Source: Escherichia phage vB_EcoM_G2285
Sequence record: MK327933.1
Reading direction: 5' to 3' (one strand)
DNA: 64,000 nt
In this document: positions 2 to 61,910 of the stretch, piece by piece
Numbering within the stretch: the stretch's first letter is position 1
Layout: the number at the start of each line of letters is the position of its first letter
Position numbers and translations under genes: made by a program
Notes under the pieces: generated by a model
The model's input: the letters and a program-made list of their open reading frames with translations, nothing else
Told to the model about the DNA's origin: nothing
Database searches by the model: none

Positions 2-644
<643 letters not shown>

Positions 645-646
645 TA

Positions 647-874
647 ATGGACGATTTAATTCAAGCTATTAAATCAAACGACCTCGTTGCTACTCGAAAG
701 TTTTTTGAAAGTGCAATGGCAGAAAAAACGGTTCGTTTGATTGAAGCACGCAAAGCAGAAATCGCTTCTCAATTTTTGATTGAAGGCGAAGAACCTGAAG
801 AAGAAGAGAAAGCTTCGGAAGACGACGAAGATGATGACGATGAAGACGAATATGATGATGAGGACGATGAATAA
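647..874 (+). CDS. 67: Prohead core protein gp67 with acidic tail
   Basis: 75-aa ORF with D/E-rich C-terminus, at the T4 gene 67 position. Confidence 0.7.
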
Positions 875-1973: not shown

Positions 1974-2786
1974 ATGATCAAAGAACAACTTTTGAAAGAA
2001 GCTCAGAACATCGAGACTTCAGTTGCTCTTAATAGTGTTTTCGAATCAGTAGAACTGTCTCCGGACGTTAAAGCTAATTTCAGCACTGTATTCGAAGCCA
2101 CCGTTAAGCAGGAAGCAGTCAAACTGGCTGAATCTCATATCAAAGCCATCGCCGAAAAAGCCGAAGAAGAAGTTGAAAAGGCTAAAGAAGATGCTGAAGA
2201 GAAAGCTGATAAAAAATTGGCTGAACAAGCTTCTAAATTCCTAGACCATCTTGCAAAAGAATGGCTCGCAGAAAACCAAATCGCAGTTGATAAAGGCATT
2301 AAAGCTGATTTGTTCGAATCCATGCTTGGTGGTCTGAAAGAACTGTTTGTTGAACATAACGTTGTTGTTCCAGAAGAATCTGTAGATGTTGTAGCAGAAA
2401 TGGAAGAAGAGCTGGCCGAACATAAAGAAGAAACCGCTCGTTTGTTCGAAGAAGTTACCAAACGTGATGCATATATCAATTACGTTCAGCGTGAAACCGC
2501 TATTAATGAAAGCGTAAAAGACCTGACTGAATCTCAGAAAGAAAAAGTTATTGGCCTGGTTGAAGGTATGGATTATTCTGACGCATTTGGTACTAAGTTA
2601 ACTGCTATTGTAGAAATGGTTAAAGGTTCTACTAAAGAAGAAGCCGCTATTACCGAAAGTATAAATACAGTTGACAATGACGCTGCCGGTCTTAATTTTG
2701 TTGCCGAAGCAGTTGACACTACCACAACTCAGGTAGAACAGAATTCTAATGTAAGTTTATATGCGAAAGTCGCATCTCGTTTCTAA
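1974..2786 (+). CDS. 22: Prohead core scaffold protein gp22
   Basis: 270 aa, acidic, coiled-coil-like; synteny. Confidence 0.8.
   Translation: MIKEQLLKEAQNIETSVALNSVFESVELSPDVKANFSTVFEATVKQEAVKLAESHIKAIAEKAEEEVEKAKEDAEEKADKKLAEQASKFLDHLAKEWLAENQIAVDKGIKADLFESMLGGLKELFVEHNVVVPEESVDVVAEMEEELAEHKEETARLFEEVTKRDAYINYVQRETAINESVKDLTESQKEKVIGLVEGMDYSDAFGTKLTAIVEMVKGSTKEEAAITESINTVDNDAAGLNFVAEAVDTTTTQVEQNSNVSLYAKVASRF
2660..2667 (+). promoter_or_regulatory. Late promoter TATAAATA inside the 3' end of gene 22 (P23-like)
   Basis: Exact TATAAATA about 140 nt upstream of the gene 23 start. Confidence 0.5.
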
Positions 2787-2803
2787 TTTAAAGGTTAACA
2801 CAA

Positions 2804-4372
2804 ATGACTACTATCAAAACTAAAGCTCAGCTCGTAGACAAATGGAAAGAACTGCTGGAAGGTGAAGGCCTGCCGGAAATCGCTAATAGCAAGCAGGCTA
2901 TTATCGCTAAAATCTTCGAAAACCAGGAAAAAGATTTCGAAGTATCCCCTGAATATAAAGACGAGAAAATCGCTCAGGCATTTGGTTCTTTCTTGACCGA
3001 AGCTGAAATTGGTGGTGACCATGGTTATAATGCTCAGAACATCGCAGCGGGTCAAACCTCTGGTGCAGTAACCCAAATTGGGCCGGCAGTTATGGGTATG
3101 GTTCGTCGTGCTATTCCTAATCTGATCGCTTTTGATATTTGTGGTGTTCAGCCTATGAACAGCCCTACCGGTCAGGTATTTGCTCTCCGTGCAGTATATG
3201 GTAAAGACCCTATCGCTGCCGGCGCTAAAGAAGCTTTCCATCCGATGTATGCTCCAGACGCGATGTTCTCTGGTCAGGGTGCTGCTAAGAAATTCCCAGC
3301 TCTGGCTGCTAGCACACAAACCACTGTAGGTGATATCTATACTCACTTCTTCCAGGAAACTGGTACTGTATATCTGCAAGCTTCTGTTCAAGTAACAATC
3401 GATGCTGGTGCGACTGATGCTGCTAAATTAGATGCCGAAGTTAAGAAACAAATGGAAGCTGGTGCACTGGTAGAAATCGCTGAAGGTATGGCTACTTCTA
3501 TCGCTGAACTCCAGGAAGGTTTCAACGGTTCTACCGATAACCCATGGAATGAAATGGGCTTCCGTATCGATAAACAAGTTATCGAAGCTAAATCTCGCCA
3601 GCTGAAAGCTGCTTACTCTATCGAATTAGCACAAGACCTCCGTGCAGTACACGGTATGGATGCTGACGCTGAACTGAGCGGTATTCTGGCTACAGAAATT
3701 ATGCTAGAAATCAACCGTGAAGTTGTTGATTGGATTAACTACTCGGCACAGGTTGGTAAATCTGGTATGACCCTGACTCCGGGTTCTAAAGCTGGTGTAT
3801 TTGACTTCCAGGACCCGATTGATATCCGTGGTGCTCGTTGGGCCGGTGAAAGCTTTAAATCTCTGTTGTTCCAGATTGATAAAGAAGCAGTTGAAATTGC
3901 TCGTCAAACCGGTCGTGGTGAAGGTAACTTCATTATCGCTTCCCGTAACGTAGTTAACGTACTGGCTTCAGTTGATACTGGTATTTCTTACGCTGCACAG
4001 GGTCTGGCTTCTGGTTTTAATACCGACACTACTAAGTCTGTATTTGCCGGTGTACTTGGTGGTAAATACCGCGTATACATCGACCAGTATGCTAAACAGG
4101 ATTACTTCACCGTTGGTTACAAAGGCGCTAACGAAATGGATGCAGGTATTTACTATGCTCCTTACGTTGCACTTACCCCACTGCGTGGTTCCGATCCTAA
4201 GAACTTCCAGCCGGTAATGGGCTTTAAAACTCGTTACGGTATCGGTGTTAACCCGTTTGCTGAAAGTTCCCTGCAGGCTCCAGGTGCTCGCATCCAGTCC
4301 GGTATGCCGTCTATCCTGAACAGCCTTGGTAAGAACGCTTACTTTAGACGTGTATATGTAAAAGGCATCTAA
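2804..4372 (+). CDS. 23: Major capsid protein gp23
   Basis: 522 aa (T4 gp23 521); sequence reads as gp23. Confidence 0.95.
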   Translation: MTTIKTKAQLVDKWKELLEGEGLPEIANSKQAIIAKIFENQEKDFEVSPEYKDEKIAQAFGSFLTEAEIGGDHGYNAQNIAAGQTSGAVTQIGPAVMGMVRRAIPNLIAFDICGVQPMNSPTGQVFALRAVYGKDPIAAGAKEAFHPMYAPDAMFSGQGAAKKFPALAASTQTTVGDIYTHFFQETGTVYLQASVQVTIDAGATDAAKLDAEVKKQMEAGALVEIAEGMATSIAELQEGFNGSTDNPWNEMGFRIDKQVIEAKSRQLKAAYSIELAQDLRAVHGMDADAELSGILATEIMLEINREVVDWINYSAQVGKSGMTLTPGSKAGVFDFQDPIDIRGARWAGESFKSLLFQIDKEAVEIARQTGRGEGNFIIASRNVVNVLASVDTGISYAAQGLASGFNTDTTKSVFAGVLGGKYRVYIDQYAKQDYFTVGYKGANEMDAGIYYAPYVALTPLRGSDPKNFQPVMGFKTRYGIGVNPFAESSLQAPGARIQSGMPSILNSLGKNAYFRRVYVKGI

Positions 4373-4396
4373 TCTTAATTGATTAAATCTTATTTT

Positions 4397-4414
4397 GGGA
4401 GACTTCGGTCTCCC
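4397..4414 (+). terminator. Intrinsic terminator after gene 23 (gggagac-ttcg-gtctccc followed by T-run)
   Basis: Perfect 7-bp stem, UUCG loop, then attttt. Confidence 0.7.
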
Positions 4415-4424
4415 ATTTTTGGTT

Positions 4425-4694
4425 TTATTTCTGTGCAATTTCGATGTAAGTTTTCAAAATATTTTGCCAATTAGGCATACCTTCTTGGACATATGCTGGA
4501 GAACAGTCTTTGTTTTTGAATGATGCAAGTTTATCAGTGGCCCAATAACCTTTAGCTCGAGCTTCAGAATCAACTTTCATCCATACTTTGTTGAAGGCGT
4601 TACCATTAACTTTTGCACCATATTTTTCTACTAACTTAACCGCTTCAGCTTCCAGAACTTTTAAAGTATCTCTTAAGAAACGTGCTTTAGTCAT
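4425..4694 (-). CDS. Hypothetical early protein, 89 aa, at the locus where T4 carries segD
   Basis: ATG at 4692-4694 preceded by GAGGAG; early-type promoter just upstream on the same strand; no recognisable motif. Confidence 0.55.
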   Translation of the reverse strand: MTKARFLRDTLKVLEAEAVKLVEKYGAKVNGNAFNKVWMKVDSEARAKGYWATDKLASFKNKDCSPAYVQEGMPNWQNILKTYIEIAQK

Positions 4695-4715
4695 TTTGTT
4701 TACTCCTCTGTAGTT

Positions 4716-4760
4716 GATAAGTCTATAGTATCACATACCAAATACGTTGTAAACAATCTT
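4716..4760 (-). promoter_or_regulatory. T4 early-type promoter (GTTTAC -35, TACTAT-like -10) for the 89-aa ORF
   Basis: Minus strand reads GTTTACAACGTATTTGGTATGTGATACTAT. Confidence 0.5.
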
Positions 4761-4768
4761 TATAAATA
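4761..4768 (+). promoter_or_regulatory. Late promoter TATAAATA for gene 24
   Basis: Exact TATAAATA 28 nt upstream of the gene 24 ATG. Confidence 0.6.
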
Positions 4769-4795
4769 ATCTATATCACATAAGGAAAAAATGCA

Positions 4796-6079
4796 ATGAG
4801 TAAAATCCAAAAATTATTGCGTGAATCTACAACGTCTACTAGCAACTCAATTGGTCGCCCAAATCTCGTTGCTTTGACTCGCGCTACGACTAAATTAATA
4901 TATTCTGACATTGTAGCAACACAAAGAACTAATCAACCTGTTGCTGCTTTTTATGGTATCAAATATCTTAACCCAGACAATGAATTTACATTTAAAACTG
5001 GTGCTACTTATGCTGGCGAAGTTGGATATGTAGACCGAGAAAAAATTACTGAACTCACAGAAGAATCAAAAGTCACACTAAATAAAGGTGATTTTTTCAA
5101 ATATAATAATATCGTTTATAAGGTGTTAGAAGATACACCATTTGCAGATATTCGAGAAAGTGATCTAGAATTAGCTCTTCAGATTGCAGTCGTTCATTTA
5201 AAGGTACGGTTATTTTCAGATGCAGCGGTAACAAGCAAATTTGAAAGCTCTGATAGCGAAATTTCTGATGCAAGATTCCAGATTAATAAATGGCAAACTT
5301 CAGTCAAATCTCGTAAACTTAAAACCGGCCTCACGGTTGAATTAGCGCAAGATTTGGAAGCGAATGGATTTGATGCCCCTAACTTCTTAGAGGATTTGCT
5401 TGCTACTGAAATGGCTGATGAAATTAATAAAGATATTCTTCAGTCTTTAATTACTGTATCGAAACGTTATAAAGTTACTGGAATTACTGACACCGGATTT
5501 ATTGACTTGAGCTATGCATCCGCTCCAGAAGCAGGTCGTTCATTATATCGAATGGTGTGTGAAATGGTATCACACATTCAAAAAGAGACAACTTATACTG
5601 CAACGTTTTGTGTAGCCTCAGCTCGTGCAGCTGCTATTCTTGCTGCTTCTGGTTGGTTAAAACATAAGCCAGAAGATGACAAGTATCTTTCACAAAATGC
5701 TTATGGATTCTTGGCAAATGGATTACCTCTTTACTGCGATACCAACAGTCCATTAGATTATGTTATTGTGGGTGTTGTAGAAAATATCGGCGAAAAAGAA
5801 ATTGTAGGGTCCATCTTTTATGCTCCATACACTGAAGGAGTAGATTTAGATGACCCGGAACATGTCGGTGCTTTTAAAGTTGTAGTTGATCCAGAAAGCT
5901 TGCAACCGTCTATCGGATTATTGGTTAGATATGCTTTATCAGCAAATCCTTACACAGTAGCAAAAGATGAAAAAGAAGCGAGAATAATTGATGGCGGGGA
6001 CATGGATAAAATGGCAGGACGTTCAGACTTGTCTGTTTTACTCGGTGTTAAGCTACCAAAAATTATCATTGATGAATAA
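4796..6079 (+). CDS. 24: Capsid vertex protein gp24
   Basis: 427 aa (T4 gp24 427); gp23-like fold signature. Confidence 0.9.
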   Translation: MSKIQKLLRESTTSTSNSIGRPNLVALTRATTKLIYSDIVATQRTNQPVAAFYGIKYLNPDNEFTFKTGATYAGEVGYVDREKITELTEESKVTLNKGDFFKYNNIVYKVLEDTPFADIRESDLELALQIAVVHLKVRLFSDAAVTSKFESSDSEISDARFQINKWQTSVKSRKLKTGLTVELAQDLEANGFDAPNFLEDLLATEMADEINKDILQSLITVSKRYKVTGITDTGFIDLSYASAPEAGRSLYRMVCEMVSHIQKETTYTATFCVASARAAAILAASGWLKHKPEDDKYLSQNAYGFLANGLPLYCDTNSPLDYVIVGVVENIGEKEIVGSIFYAPYTEGVDLDDPEHVGAFKVVVDPESLQPSIGLLVRYALSANPYTVAKDEKEARIIDGGDMDKMAGRSDLSVLLGVKLPKIIIDE

Positions 6080-61660: not shown

Positions 61661-61910
61661 TTTGTGTTCCTCATATTTTGATAGGACTACTATACCATAA
61701 TCCTACCTTGATGTAAACAATTAAATTACATTAAAATACGTTAAAGCCAACCATGTTCCAGTGAACGAACATGCGATGTAAAAACCCGTATCACAAATTG
61801 TTCTTAGTACAATAAGAAGTGCATTTTTCATAAGTACCTCAATGCAATTGAAAATATTATACAAATCATAGGGATACTAAGCAACCATATTCCGATCCAC
61901 ATTTTAGAGC

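Follow-up and report, generated by a model that had tools for sequence, protein, structure and literature searches.

Small proteins made early in infection, such as Alc, AsiA, Arn, IPI* and Dmd, serve the T-even phages in host takeover and counter-defence. The T4-type phages also carry PeSL units, promoter-early stem-loop cassettes that flank ORFans (Arbiol 2010, PMC2839356; Comeau 2014, PMC4122927), and the promoter consensus reported for the PST/T4 phage pair is TTTACW-N17-TAYWAT (PMC4122927). For the homing endonuclease gene segD of T4, a 2010 review stated that no segD-specific promoter had come out of bioinformatic searches and that its transcripts may be vanishingly low (PMC2988022).

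We analysed a 64-kb stretch of DNA, referred to as the window, in which the local gene order is 20, 67, 68, 21, 22, 23, ORF, 24, rnlB, 24.2, 24.3, hoc, inh. T4 has the same order with segD, annotated on the minus strand, in place of the ORF, as an earlier reading of the window from its letters alone (hereafter the sequence-only reading) had stated. That reading had also described a minus-strand gene of 89 amino acids, equipped with a strong GAGGAG ribosome-binding site and a promoter of early type, between the late genes 23 and 24, and the list of open reading frames, the promoter scans and a class of 12 related promoter sites all bear this description out.

Organization of the cassette and its signals

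The ORF, its ribosome-binding site and its promoter make up a compact cassette between the terminator of gene 23 and the late promoter of gene 24 (Table 1). Its product has a computed mass of 10.2 kDa and a computed pI of 9.5. The promoter has the form GTTTACA-17-TG-n-TACTAT, with the A/T-rich stretch ATTATTTATAAAGATT upstream of it. At the right, the conserved border of the cassette consists of the box TATAAATA, which is the T4 late-promoter consensus, together with the abutting early -35; the box is unchanged in 7 of 7 aligned sequences, that of the empty-site phage Shfl2 included. At the left border, the hairpin of the gene 23 terminator also folds on the minus strand (-15 kcal/mol, z = -5.2), where it is followed by AAAAUAAG and has no U-run. 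Thus the ORF lacks a canonical intrinsic terminator of its own, and its transcript is predicted to run on as antisense into gene 23. Such an antisense run could itself be a selected function.

Table 1. Features of the gene 23/24 locus in coordinates of the 64-kb window
Feature	Position	Strand	Description and source
Gene 23 (major capsid)	2804-4372	plus	ORF list and annotation of the 98.8%-identical phage PhAPEC2
Gene 23 intrinsic terminator, left cassette border	4396-4426	plus	8-bp stem, UUCG loop, T-run; terminator scan; also annotated in PhAPEC2
Hairpin part of the terminator	4396-4415		
ORF coding sequence	4694 to 4425	minus	ATG start, TAA stop at 4425-4427, 89 aa; ORF list
Exchangeable segment	4429-4702		AV116 has 933 bp here: Dhaka-type ORF and SegD-like gene
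Shine-Dalgarno GAGGAG	4703-4708	minus	8 nt upstream of the ORF ATG; sequence read directly
ORF transcription start (putative)	near 4717-4718	minus	
Early-type sigma-70 promoter of the ORF	4725-4754	minus	Promoter scan
-10 of the ORF promoter	4725-4730	minus	TACTAT
TG of the ORF promoter	4732-4733	minus	
-35 of the ORF promoter	4748-4753	minus	TTTACA (GTTTAC at 4749-4754), then 17-nt spacer
Late-promoter box of gene 24	4761-4768	plus	TATAAATA; abuts the early -35 of the opposite strand
Gene 24	4796-6079	plus	ORF list and annotation of PhAPEC2

A generic sigma-70 scan of the 800-bp stretch around the ORF returned 2 sites against 2.5 expected, a result that is not significant alone. For the motif GTTTAC-N18-TANNNT, in turn, the window contains 12 sites where 0.98 would be expected, and none of 100 shuffles reached 12. 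All 12 sites, the ORF promoter among them, lie on the minus strand, which also bears homologues of T4 alt, 30, cd, pseT and alc. The ORF promoter belongs to this class of the phage's own GTTTAC-type sigma-70 promoters; it is closely similar to several other sites of the class (GTTTACAA...TGTGATACTAT) and also fits the PST/T4 consensus given above. When the promoters were aligned, the -35 block was found to be invariant in Mosig-, Dhaka- and Gapriverviruses, in T4 and in one metagenomic T-even phage; in all of these the -10 conforms to TAnnAT. This conservation extends across genera although the ORF protein has diverged to about 30% identity. Likewise, GGAG is found at the same place in the ribosome-binding sites of JS98, VR20, Bp7 and L008, the last a metagenomic T-even phage. 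The DNA fold of positions 4715-4770 on the minus strand revealed no stem-loop at the ORF promoter (-1.2 kcal/mol, z = +0.59), while 6 of its 11 sister promoters of the class have one, with fold z between -1.6 and -3.2. About half of the window's other early promoters thus have a stem-loop that the ORF promoter lacks, and this counts against the main reading proposed below. A literature search for a transcriptome or time-course paper on RB69 or a Mosigvirus retrieved none.

In an A+T-rich genome the length of an ORF is no evidence by itself, as illustrated by a 156-codon antisense ORF inside gene 23.

That the 89-aa ORF is a real protein-coding gene, kept by selection, is shown by the class of its promoter, the conservation of that promoter, purifying selection and a confident fold. 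In unsaturated pairs (those of JS98, VR5 and Bp7, dS 0.14-0.44), dN/dS was 0.05-0.10; for JS98/VR5 dS was 0.37 and dN 0.03, and omega was 0.10 for JS98/Bp7 and 0.05 for VR5/Bp7. Structure prediction, which the sequence-only reading had proposed as a check, gave a confident single domain with no PDB neighbour (AlphaFold, 18-sequence alignment, pLDDT 93.5, pTM 0.79). With high confidence, the protein is predicted to fold as one compact domain of three helices (residues 3-25, 31-48 and 76-88) and a beta-hairpin (52-60 and 66-70). The frame is intact in about 240 phage records with a single frameshifted exception, phage mogra, in which a 1-nt deletion in an A5 run splits the ORF; it was the only Mosig-type copy that aligned in two pieces in the tblastn search of phage records. 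The frameshift is either a sequencing error or a sign that the ORF is dispensable in the laboratory. Phage 310Ecol104PP carries a truncated fragment of 64 aa (P0022).

The ORF family and the gene 23/24 interval across phages

The ORF protein matched the PHROG 6003 family (E = 2.7e-44, with residues 1-89 aligned to positions 1-90 of the 90-position profile), and RB69ORF188c, JS98 orf173, VR7 gp190 and PhAPEC2_170, the last annotated as similar to RB69ORF188c, are members of the same family. It is 98-100% identical to its Mosigvirus orthologues, and phages AV118 and vB_EcoM_G2285 encode the very same protein. A stretch of 601 bases around the ORF gave full-length matches at 98-99% identity to about 120 complete phage genomes, all of them RB69-like T-even phages among the matches listed; PhAPEC2, mogra and AV116 were checked by taxonomy to be Mosigviruses. 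The window itself belongs to an RB69-like Mosigvirus. By tblastn, the family was found in 240 of 50,697 phage records, about 119 of which were at least 90% identical (Mosig-type) and 120 below 60%. A word-indexed search of 5.8 billion proteins yielded 23 clusters at E <= 0.01, and an exhaustive HMM search of 1.84 billion representatives yielded 9 matches, 7 of them in the family; one of these seven, P0023, looks chimeric and was left out of the family set for that reason. Two long proteins, P0025 (996 aa, 9 stretches) and P0026 (1347 aa, Ig-like repeats), were rejected as spurious, since they offered only summed weak matches to the NGN-helix segment. A scan of IMG/VR returned only sequenced Dhaka- and Gapriver-type genomes.

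The gene is thus already annotated in about 240 phage records, yet it is uncharacterised: every source labels the family "hypothetical", the sole exception being "curcumin reductase", an automatic name that is plainly mistaken. In the literature searched we found no mention of RB69ORF188c, and the string "ORF188c" matched only genes of 44RR and RB49. A preprint describes Emp, an early growth-inhibiting peptide of Mosigvirus AV110; as indexed, it appears to be without the terms capsid, gp23, gp24 and 89 aa, and Emp is unlikely to be this ORF.

The family falls into three clades. The Mosig-type comprises the window and the metagenomic L017 and L018, the Dhaka/Gapriver-type comprises JS98, VR5, Bp7, VR20 and L008, and a third clade lies outside the T-even phages with Acinetobacter phage ABPH49 (filed under Vequintavirinae), L010 and L019. 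Mosig-type proteins stand at least as far from the Dhaka-type (25-39% identity) as from the non-T-even type (28-44%). The 18-sequence alignment shows M1, K3, F6, N30-G31-N32, N35, A45 and Q70 to be invariant, with L14 and L21 listed too; we read these residues, placed on the predicted model, as mostly core or loop positions, that is, as structural. In all three clades every member is basic (pI 8.0-9.8) and of about 10 kDa. The homologues of ABPH49, L010 and L019 are located away from capsid genes, in long same-strand arrays of small genes, one of which includes a T7 gp0.6-like gene. A search for a conserved partner gene in these three contexts found none; the ORF alone is common to all three and is the sole protein that they share with the window.

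When we compared the interval between genes 23 and 24 across T-even phages, four states were distinguished. It is empty, at 83-100 bp, in Tequatrovirus Shfl2 and FelixPlatter, Moonvirus Merlin, Karamvirus PG7, Klebsiella phage Phi_KR8 and Kagamiyamavirus EcS1, and emptiness is the state of most T-even genera sampled. The ORF stands alone in Mosigviruses, in the Dhakaviruses JS98, VR5 and Bp7, in Gaprivervirus VR20 and in the three metagenomic T-even phages L008, L017 and L018; its opposite-strand placement was confirmed in PhAPEC2 and in each of these named and metagenomic phages. T4 has segD alone. In Mosigviruses AV116 and LF82-2 and in Dhakavirus 04086, the ORF is followed after 3 nt by a SegD-like gene on the same strand, with a single promoter upstream of the pair; in 04086 the SegD reading frame is unannotated. 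Within T-even genomes, the ORF family is bound to this single site.

These states bear on the idea that the promoter is the selected feature and the protein incidental, antisense transcription into gene 23 serving to damp premature capsid expression. The missing U-tract terminator on the ORF strand would suit it, as would the persistence of the promoter block in front of other cargo, namely T4 segD. We nevertheless hold it to be highly improbable: the empty-slot phages are without the promoter too, purifying selection on the amino-acid sequence is strong, the ribosome-binding site is conserved, homologues occur in unrelated genomic contexts, and sequences of 30% identity lead to a confidently predicted conserved fold.

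No homology of the ORF to a characterised T4 protein, a finding that would have spoken against the sequence-only reading, or to a solved structure was found by sequence, profile and structure searches. Pfam gave no significant match (DUF4859, at E = 0.022, was below its cutoff), NCBIfam and PADLOC, which models defence proteins, gave nothing meaningful above threshold, a sequence profile search of the PDB hit designed helical proteins only (E >= 0.12), and Foldseek of the model against the PDB had no match at E <= 0.001. Among the folds of known function considered, solved or modelled, neither the anti-defence proteins of the PDB nor small basic proteins of the HU/IHF and RelE/ParE kinds matched the model significantly. 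In a viral structure library, the only significant match was an unnamed 88-aa protein of 29% identity, which most likely belongs to the same family.

The GIY-YIG, profile and family tests that we ran gave no sign of a nuclease. The sequence-only reading had stated that the ORF is no Seg enzyme, and we agree: with 89 aa, it had no GIY-YIG match in Pfam even at E <= 10. A homing endonuclease remnant was rejected, as hhalign of the family profile against T4 SegD returned a probability of 0.9%. Inspection by eye for a beta-beta-alpha-metal (HNH-like) site in the hairpin-helix part led to the idea being dropped, since the Mosig-type is without histidine and neither His nor Cys is conserved in the family.

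Exchange of ORF alleles and the SegD-type endonucleases

The blastn comparison of the window with AV116 showed 96.9% identity up to position 4428 and 96.3% from 4703, with nothing alignable between; the shared right flank begins with the GAGGAG site. Between the two phages gp23 is 99% and gp24 100% identical, while the ORF proteins share 30%. The AV116 ORF instead shares 99% identity with its counterpart in Dhakavirus 04086 and 93% with the one in JS98, and the SegD proteins of AV116 and 04086 share 84%; between the window and JS98, gp24 is 70% identical. These breakpoints and identities indicate that a unit made of a Dhaka-type ORF and SegD took the place of the stretch lying between the terminator of gene 23 and the ribosome-binding site. 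Thus ORF alleles of 30% identity have been exchanged whole between phages whose capsid genes are 99-100% identical. The simplest reading is that the swap probably came about by endonuclease-driven homing with co-conversion of the adjoining ORF, given what is known of Seg enzymes (PMC2988022).

The sequence-only reading had called the interval a hotspot for mobile-element traffic. The traffic itself is supported by data: the interval is empty in six phages (five of named T-even genera and an unclassified Klebsiella phage), a SegD-like gene stands beside the ORF in AV116, LF82-2 and 04086, and the ORF allele was swapped between near-identical phages. One adjustment is called for: the ORF is no recent cargo but the regular occupant of the slot in three genera and in unclassified T-even phages.

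The SegD proteins are 219-223 aa long, and the SegD-like protein of the AV116 type, which occurs in about 33 records at 95% identity or more and in 5 more at 80-90%, is 59% identical to T4 SegD. T4 segD resembles the ORF in its slot, in its antisense orientation and in its stop codon, which falls within the gene 23 terminator's T-run. Upstream of it we identified TTTACA-17-TG-n-TATTAT (T4 107281-107253, minus strand), which agrees with the consensus at 10 of 12 positions and is the best site in the region. This promoter aligns base for base with that of the ORF and likewise abuts TATAAATA of gene 24, so that T4 segD and the ORF share a homologous TTTACA-17-TAnnAT promoter next to the gene 24 late promoter. 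The proteins themselves are unlike, SegD having a GIY-YIG domain and about 220 aa and the ORF product being a single compact domain of 89 aa. The alignment suggests that T4 inherited a cassette of the ORF type that either lacks the ORF or had it replaced by segD. The comparison also gives a testable answer on T4 segD, a conserved sigma-70-type promoter in front of the gene, contrary to the 2010 review (PMC2988022).

The proximity of the two genes raises the question of whether the ORF is tied to SegD, as a helper, a regulator, an immunity factor against cleavage or simply DNA that bears the SegD target. The 3-nt gap and single promoter in AV116, LF82-2, ATK47 and Dhakavirus 04086 could be read in this way, as could the position of T4 segD behind a homologous promoter block and the coincidence of the allele swap with the presence of SegD. 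We consider such a tie improbable, since roughly 200 of the approximately 240 ORF records are without the AV116-type SegD (about 38 have it at 80% identity or more), segD occurs in T4 in the absence of the ORF, no endonuclease adjoins the ORF in the non-T-even members, the ORF has no sequence relation to SegD, and passive co-conversion predicts the linkage without any functional tie. In the reading that we prefer, SegD-type endonucleases would have used the ORF promoter as a landing site and would drag the ORF allele along by co-conversion. The locus would then illustrate how a homing endonuclease can exploit the promoter of an accessory gene and bring a foreign allele into a 99%-identical genome, and would be a tangible example of how nucleases set the limits of genetic exchange among phages.

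Candidate functions and known systems

Judged from its context, we give about an even chance to the ORF product being an early, accessory, non-essential protein that binds a host macromolecule, for takeover or counter-defence; the weight of this estimate lies on the "early accessory binder" and not on a named target. The host RNA polymerase, still unmodified, would transcribe the ORF within minutes of the onset of infection, and its protein, no enzyme, would act by stoichiometric binding to some macromolecule of the enterobacterial host. Host takeover or counter-defence is proposed because of the early promoter, the small size, the fast divergence and the small early-type neighbours in unrelated phages. 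A binder is preferred to an enzyme because of the length of 89 aa, the mostly structural invariant residues (as we read them on the model), the lack of a match to a catalytic family in our searches and the conserved basic pI. The gene appears accessory because the slot is empty in Shfl2, FelixPlatter, Merlin, PG7, Phi_KR8 and EcS1.

The charge of the protein also invites another explanation, and it should be noted that, against the host-binder reading, a basic charge fits nucleic-acid binding equally with protein binding. The ORF product could be a nucleic-acid-binding regulator of the phage's own programme, acting on DNA or RNA at the capsid cluster or on early or late transcripts. Its net positive charge (pI about 9.5) is kept in all clades despite identities of 30%, its size and the alpha/beta make-up of the predicted fold are common among small DNA and RNA binders, and its position beside genes 23 and 24 is constant in all T-even members. 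Even so, we regard this regulator as an unlikely alternative to the early binder of a host macromolecule.

The position between 23 and 24, kept in every T-even member found, could also mean a capsid-linked role, and this too stands against the host-binder reading. In such a role, the ORF product would be an early chaperone, or a decoy that handles gp23 and gp24 or masks them from capsid-sensing host immunity. The invariance of a site between the major capsid and the vertex genes is what commends this proposal. However, early timing and the opposite strand are a mismatch with late capsid expression, and the ORF is absent from most T-even genera sampled despite very similar gp23 and gp24. We take the protein to be neither structural nor capsid-specific because PhAPEC2 flags gp22, gp23 and gp24 as structural virion proteins and not the ORF, because relatives in other phages lie away from capsid genes, and because an allele of 30% identity coexists with gp23 and gp24 that are 99-100% identical; the protein would then be dispensable for particle formation. 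On this evidence a capsid-related role is distinctly improbable.

Returning to the early accessory binder, a more far-reaching version can be put forward, tentatively and as a rather speculative extension. The ORF product may be a new early counter-defence or host-takeover protein with an unseen fold, and the two alleles of 30% identity may represent alternative specificities that SegD-type endonucleases shuttle between co-infecting T-even genera. If true, the exchange of an adaptive accessory gene within an otherwise frozen capsid module would be carried by a selfish nuclease. On a sober view, the ORF is one more uncharacterised small early T-even gene, of which each such genome has dozens. 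Nevertheless, its confident fold without a structural neighbour and its tiny phage-restricted family make it a clean and tractable candidate for functional screens.

Compared with the small early proteins Alc, AsiA, Arn, IPI* and Dmd, the ORF product is presumably alike, from general knowledge of these proteins, in being small, probably early, dispensable, patchy in distribution and fast-diverging. It differs from them in that no sequence or fold similarity between them and the ORF protein was found and, being basic, it is no acidic DNA mimic like Arn or Ocr. The likeness to the PeSL cassettes lies in a small ORFan with its own strong sigma-70-like early promoter fitting TTTACW-N17-TAYWAT, in a probably non-essential ORF, and in a module exchanged between related phages with breakpoints at regulatory elements. 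Unlike those cassettes, the ORF promoter has no stem-loop of its own and the ORF resides in the conserved late capsid block instead of a hyperplastic region, and whereas PeSL units recombine with one another, the exchange of the ORF is associated with a homing endonuclease.

A predicted segD promoter and ORF–SegD pairs

When we compared the slot between genes 23 and 24 across T-even phages, we found a predicted promoter upstream of T4 segD, the GIY-YIG homing endonuclease gene on the minus strand, that is homologous in both sequence and position to the promoter of the 89-aa ORF occupying this slot in Mosig, Dhaka and Gapriver phages (see table). According to a 2010 review (PMC2988022), searches had failed to identify a promoter specific to segD. 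In AV116, LF82-2 and Dhakavirus 04086, the ORF is paired between genes 24 and 23 with a SegD-like GIY-YIG gene in an apparent two-gene operon; the SegD-like reading frame of 04086 (223 codons) is unannotated.

Coordinates of the features described in this part
Feature	Sequence	Position	Strand	Remarks
Predicted segD promoter	T4 (L007)	2254-2282 = T4 genome 107253-107281	minus	TTTACA-17-TG-n-TATTAT; 10/12 consensus positions
ORF + SegD-like pair	AV116 (L029)	2501-3430
ORF + SegD-like pair	LF82-2 (L030)	2501-3430
ORF + SegD-like pair	Dhakavirus 04086 (L031)	2231-3172
55-bp tandem duplication	window	477-586 (copies 477-531 + 532-586)		3′ end of portal gene 20; copies 98% identical
Extra hypothetical gene, gene 24/rnlB	Merlin (L013)	2815-3306	minus	142-182 aa across the three phages
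Extra hypothetical gene, gene 24/rnlB	PG7 (L014)	2817-3245	minus
Extra hypothetical gene, gene 24/rnlB	Phi_KR8 (L015)	2812-3360	minus
GTTTAC-N18-TANNNT sister promoters with stem-loop	window	starts 29494, 31627, 33033, 34217, 61689, 62201	minus	z -1.6 to -3.2
Other GTTTAC-N18-TANNNT sister promoters	window	starts 7567, 20054, 46077, 56597, 58506	minus

Variants and naming of the ORF

Codon 64 of the ORF (window 4503-4505) encodes Cys (TGT) in the window versus Gly (GGT) in PhAPEC2, mogra and the cluster representative, and the Cys64 variant was matched exactly in phages AV118 and vB_EcoM_G2285. In mogra (L032 301-569), loss of 1 nt from an A5 run shifts the frame, and the ORF is annotated there as two pieces, 38 and 51 aa long; this is a natural knock-out or else a sequencing error in the homopolymer. 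The 90-aa family member P0016 (metagenomic L017, 4001-4273) is named "NADPH-dependent curcumin reductase CurA" in one source (JGI), evidently a mis-annotation.

Variation among the neighbouring capsid genes

Vertex gene 24 is present in two tandem copies in Dhaka-, Gapriver- and two metagenomic T-even sequences (L002, L004, L005, L006, L008 and L017), and in L017 the duplication accompanies a Mosig-type ORF allele. A second variable slot adjoining the capsid genes is the gene 24/rnlB interval: Merlin, PG7 and Phi_KR8 carry an extra minus-strand hypothetical gene there, and the window, T4 and EcS1 do not.

The tandem duplication near the end of portal gene 20 shifts the reading frame because 55 bp is not a multiple of three; the portal ORF of the window ends in ...QIEGYSSDV, and the usual C-terminus was found in a separate short ORF (window 510-647). 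A 321-bp query over this region spanned 266 bp in the eight best-matching phage records, which are therefore without the duplicated copy. The duplication may have arisen by mutation in this isolate alone or be an artefact of assembly.

Sister promoters and their stem-loops

Like that of the ORF, the 11 other GTTTAC-N18-TANNNT promoters of the window all lie on the minus strand. A stem-loop occupies the spacer or overlaps the -10 element in six of these 11, and those at 61689 and 62201 have identical stem sequences. These six stem-loops resemble those of PeSLs, the promoter-early stem-loop units that flank ORFans in T4-type phages.
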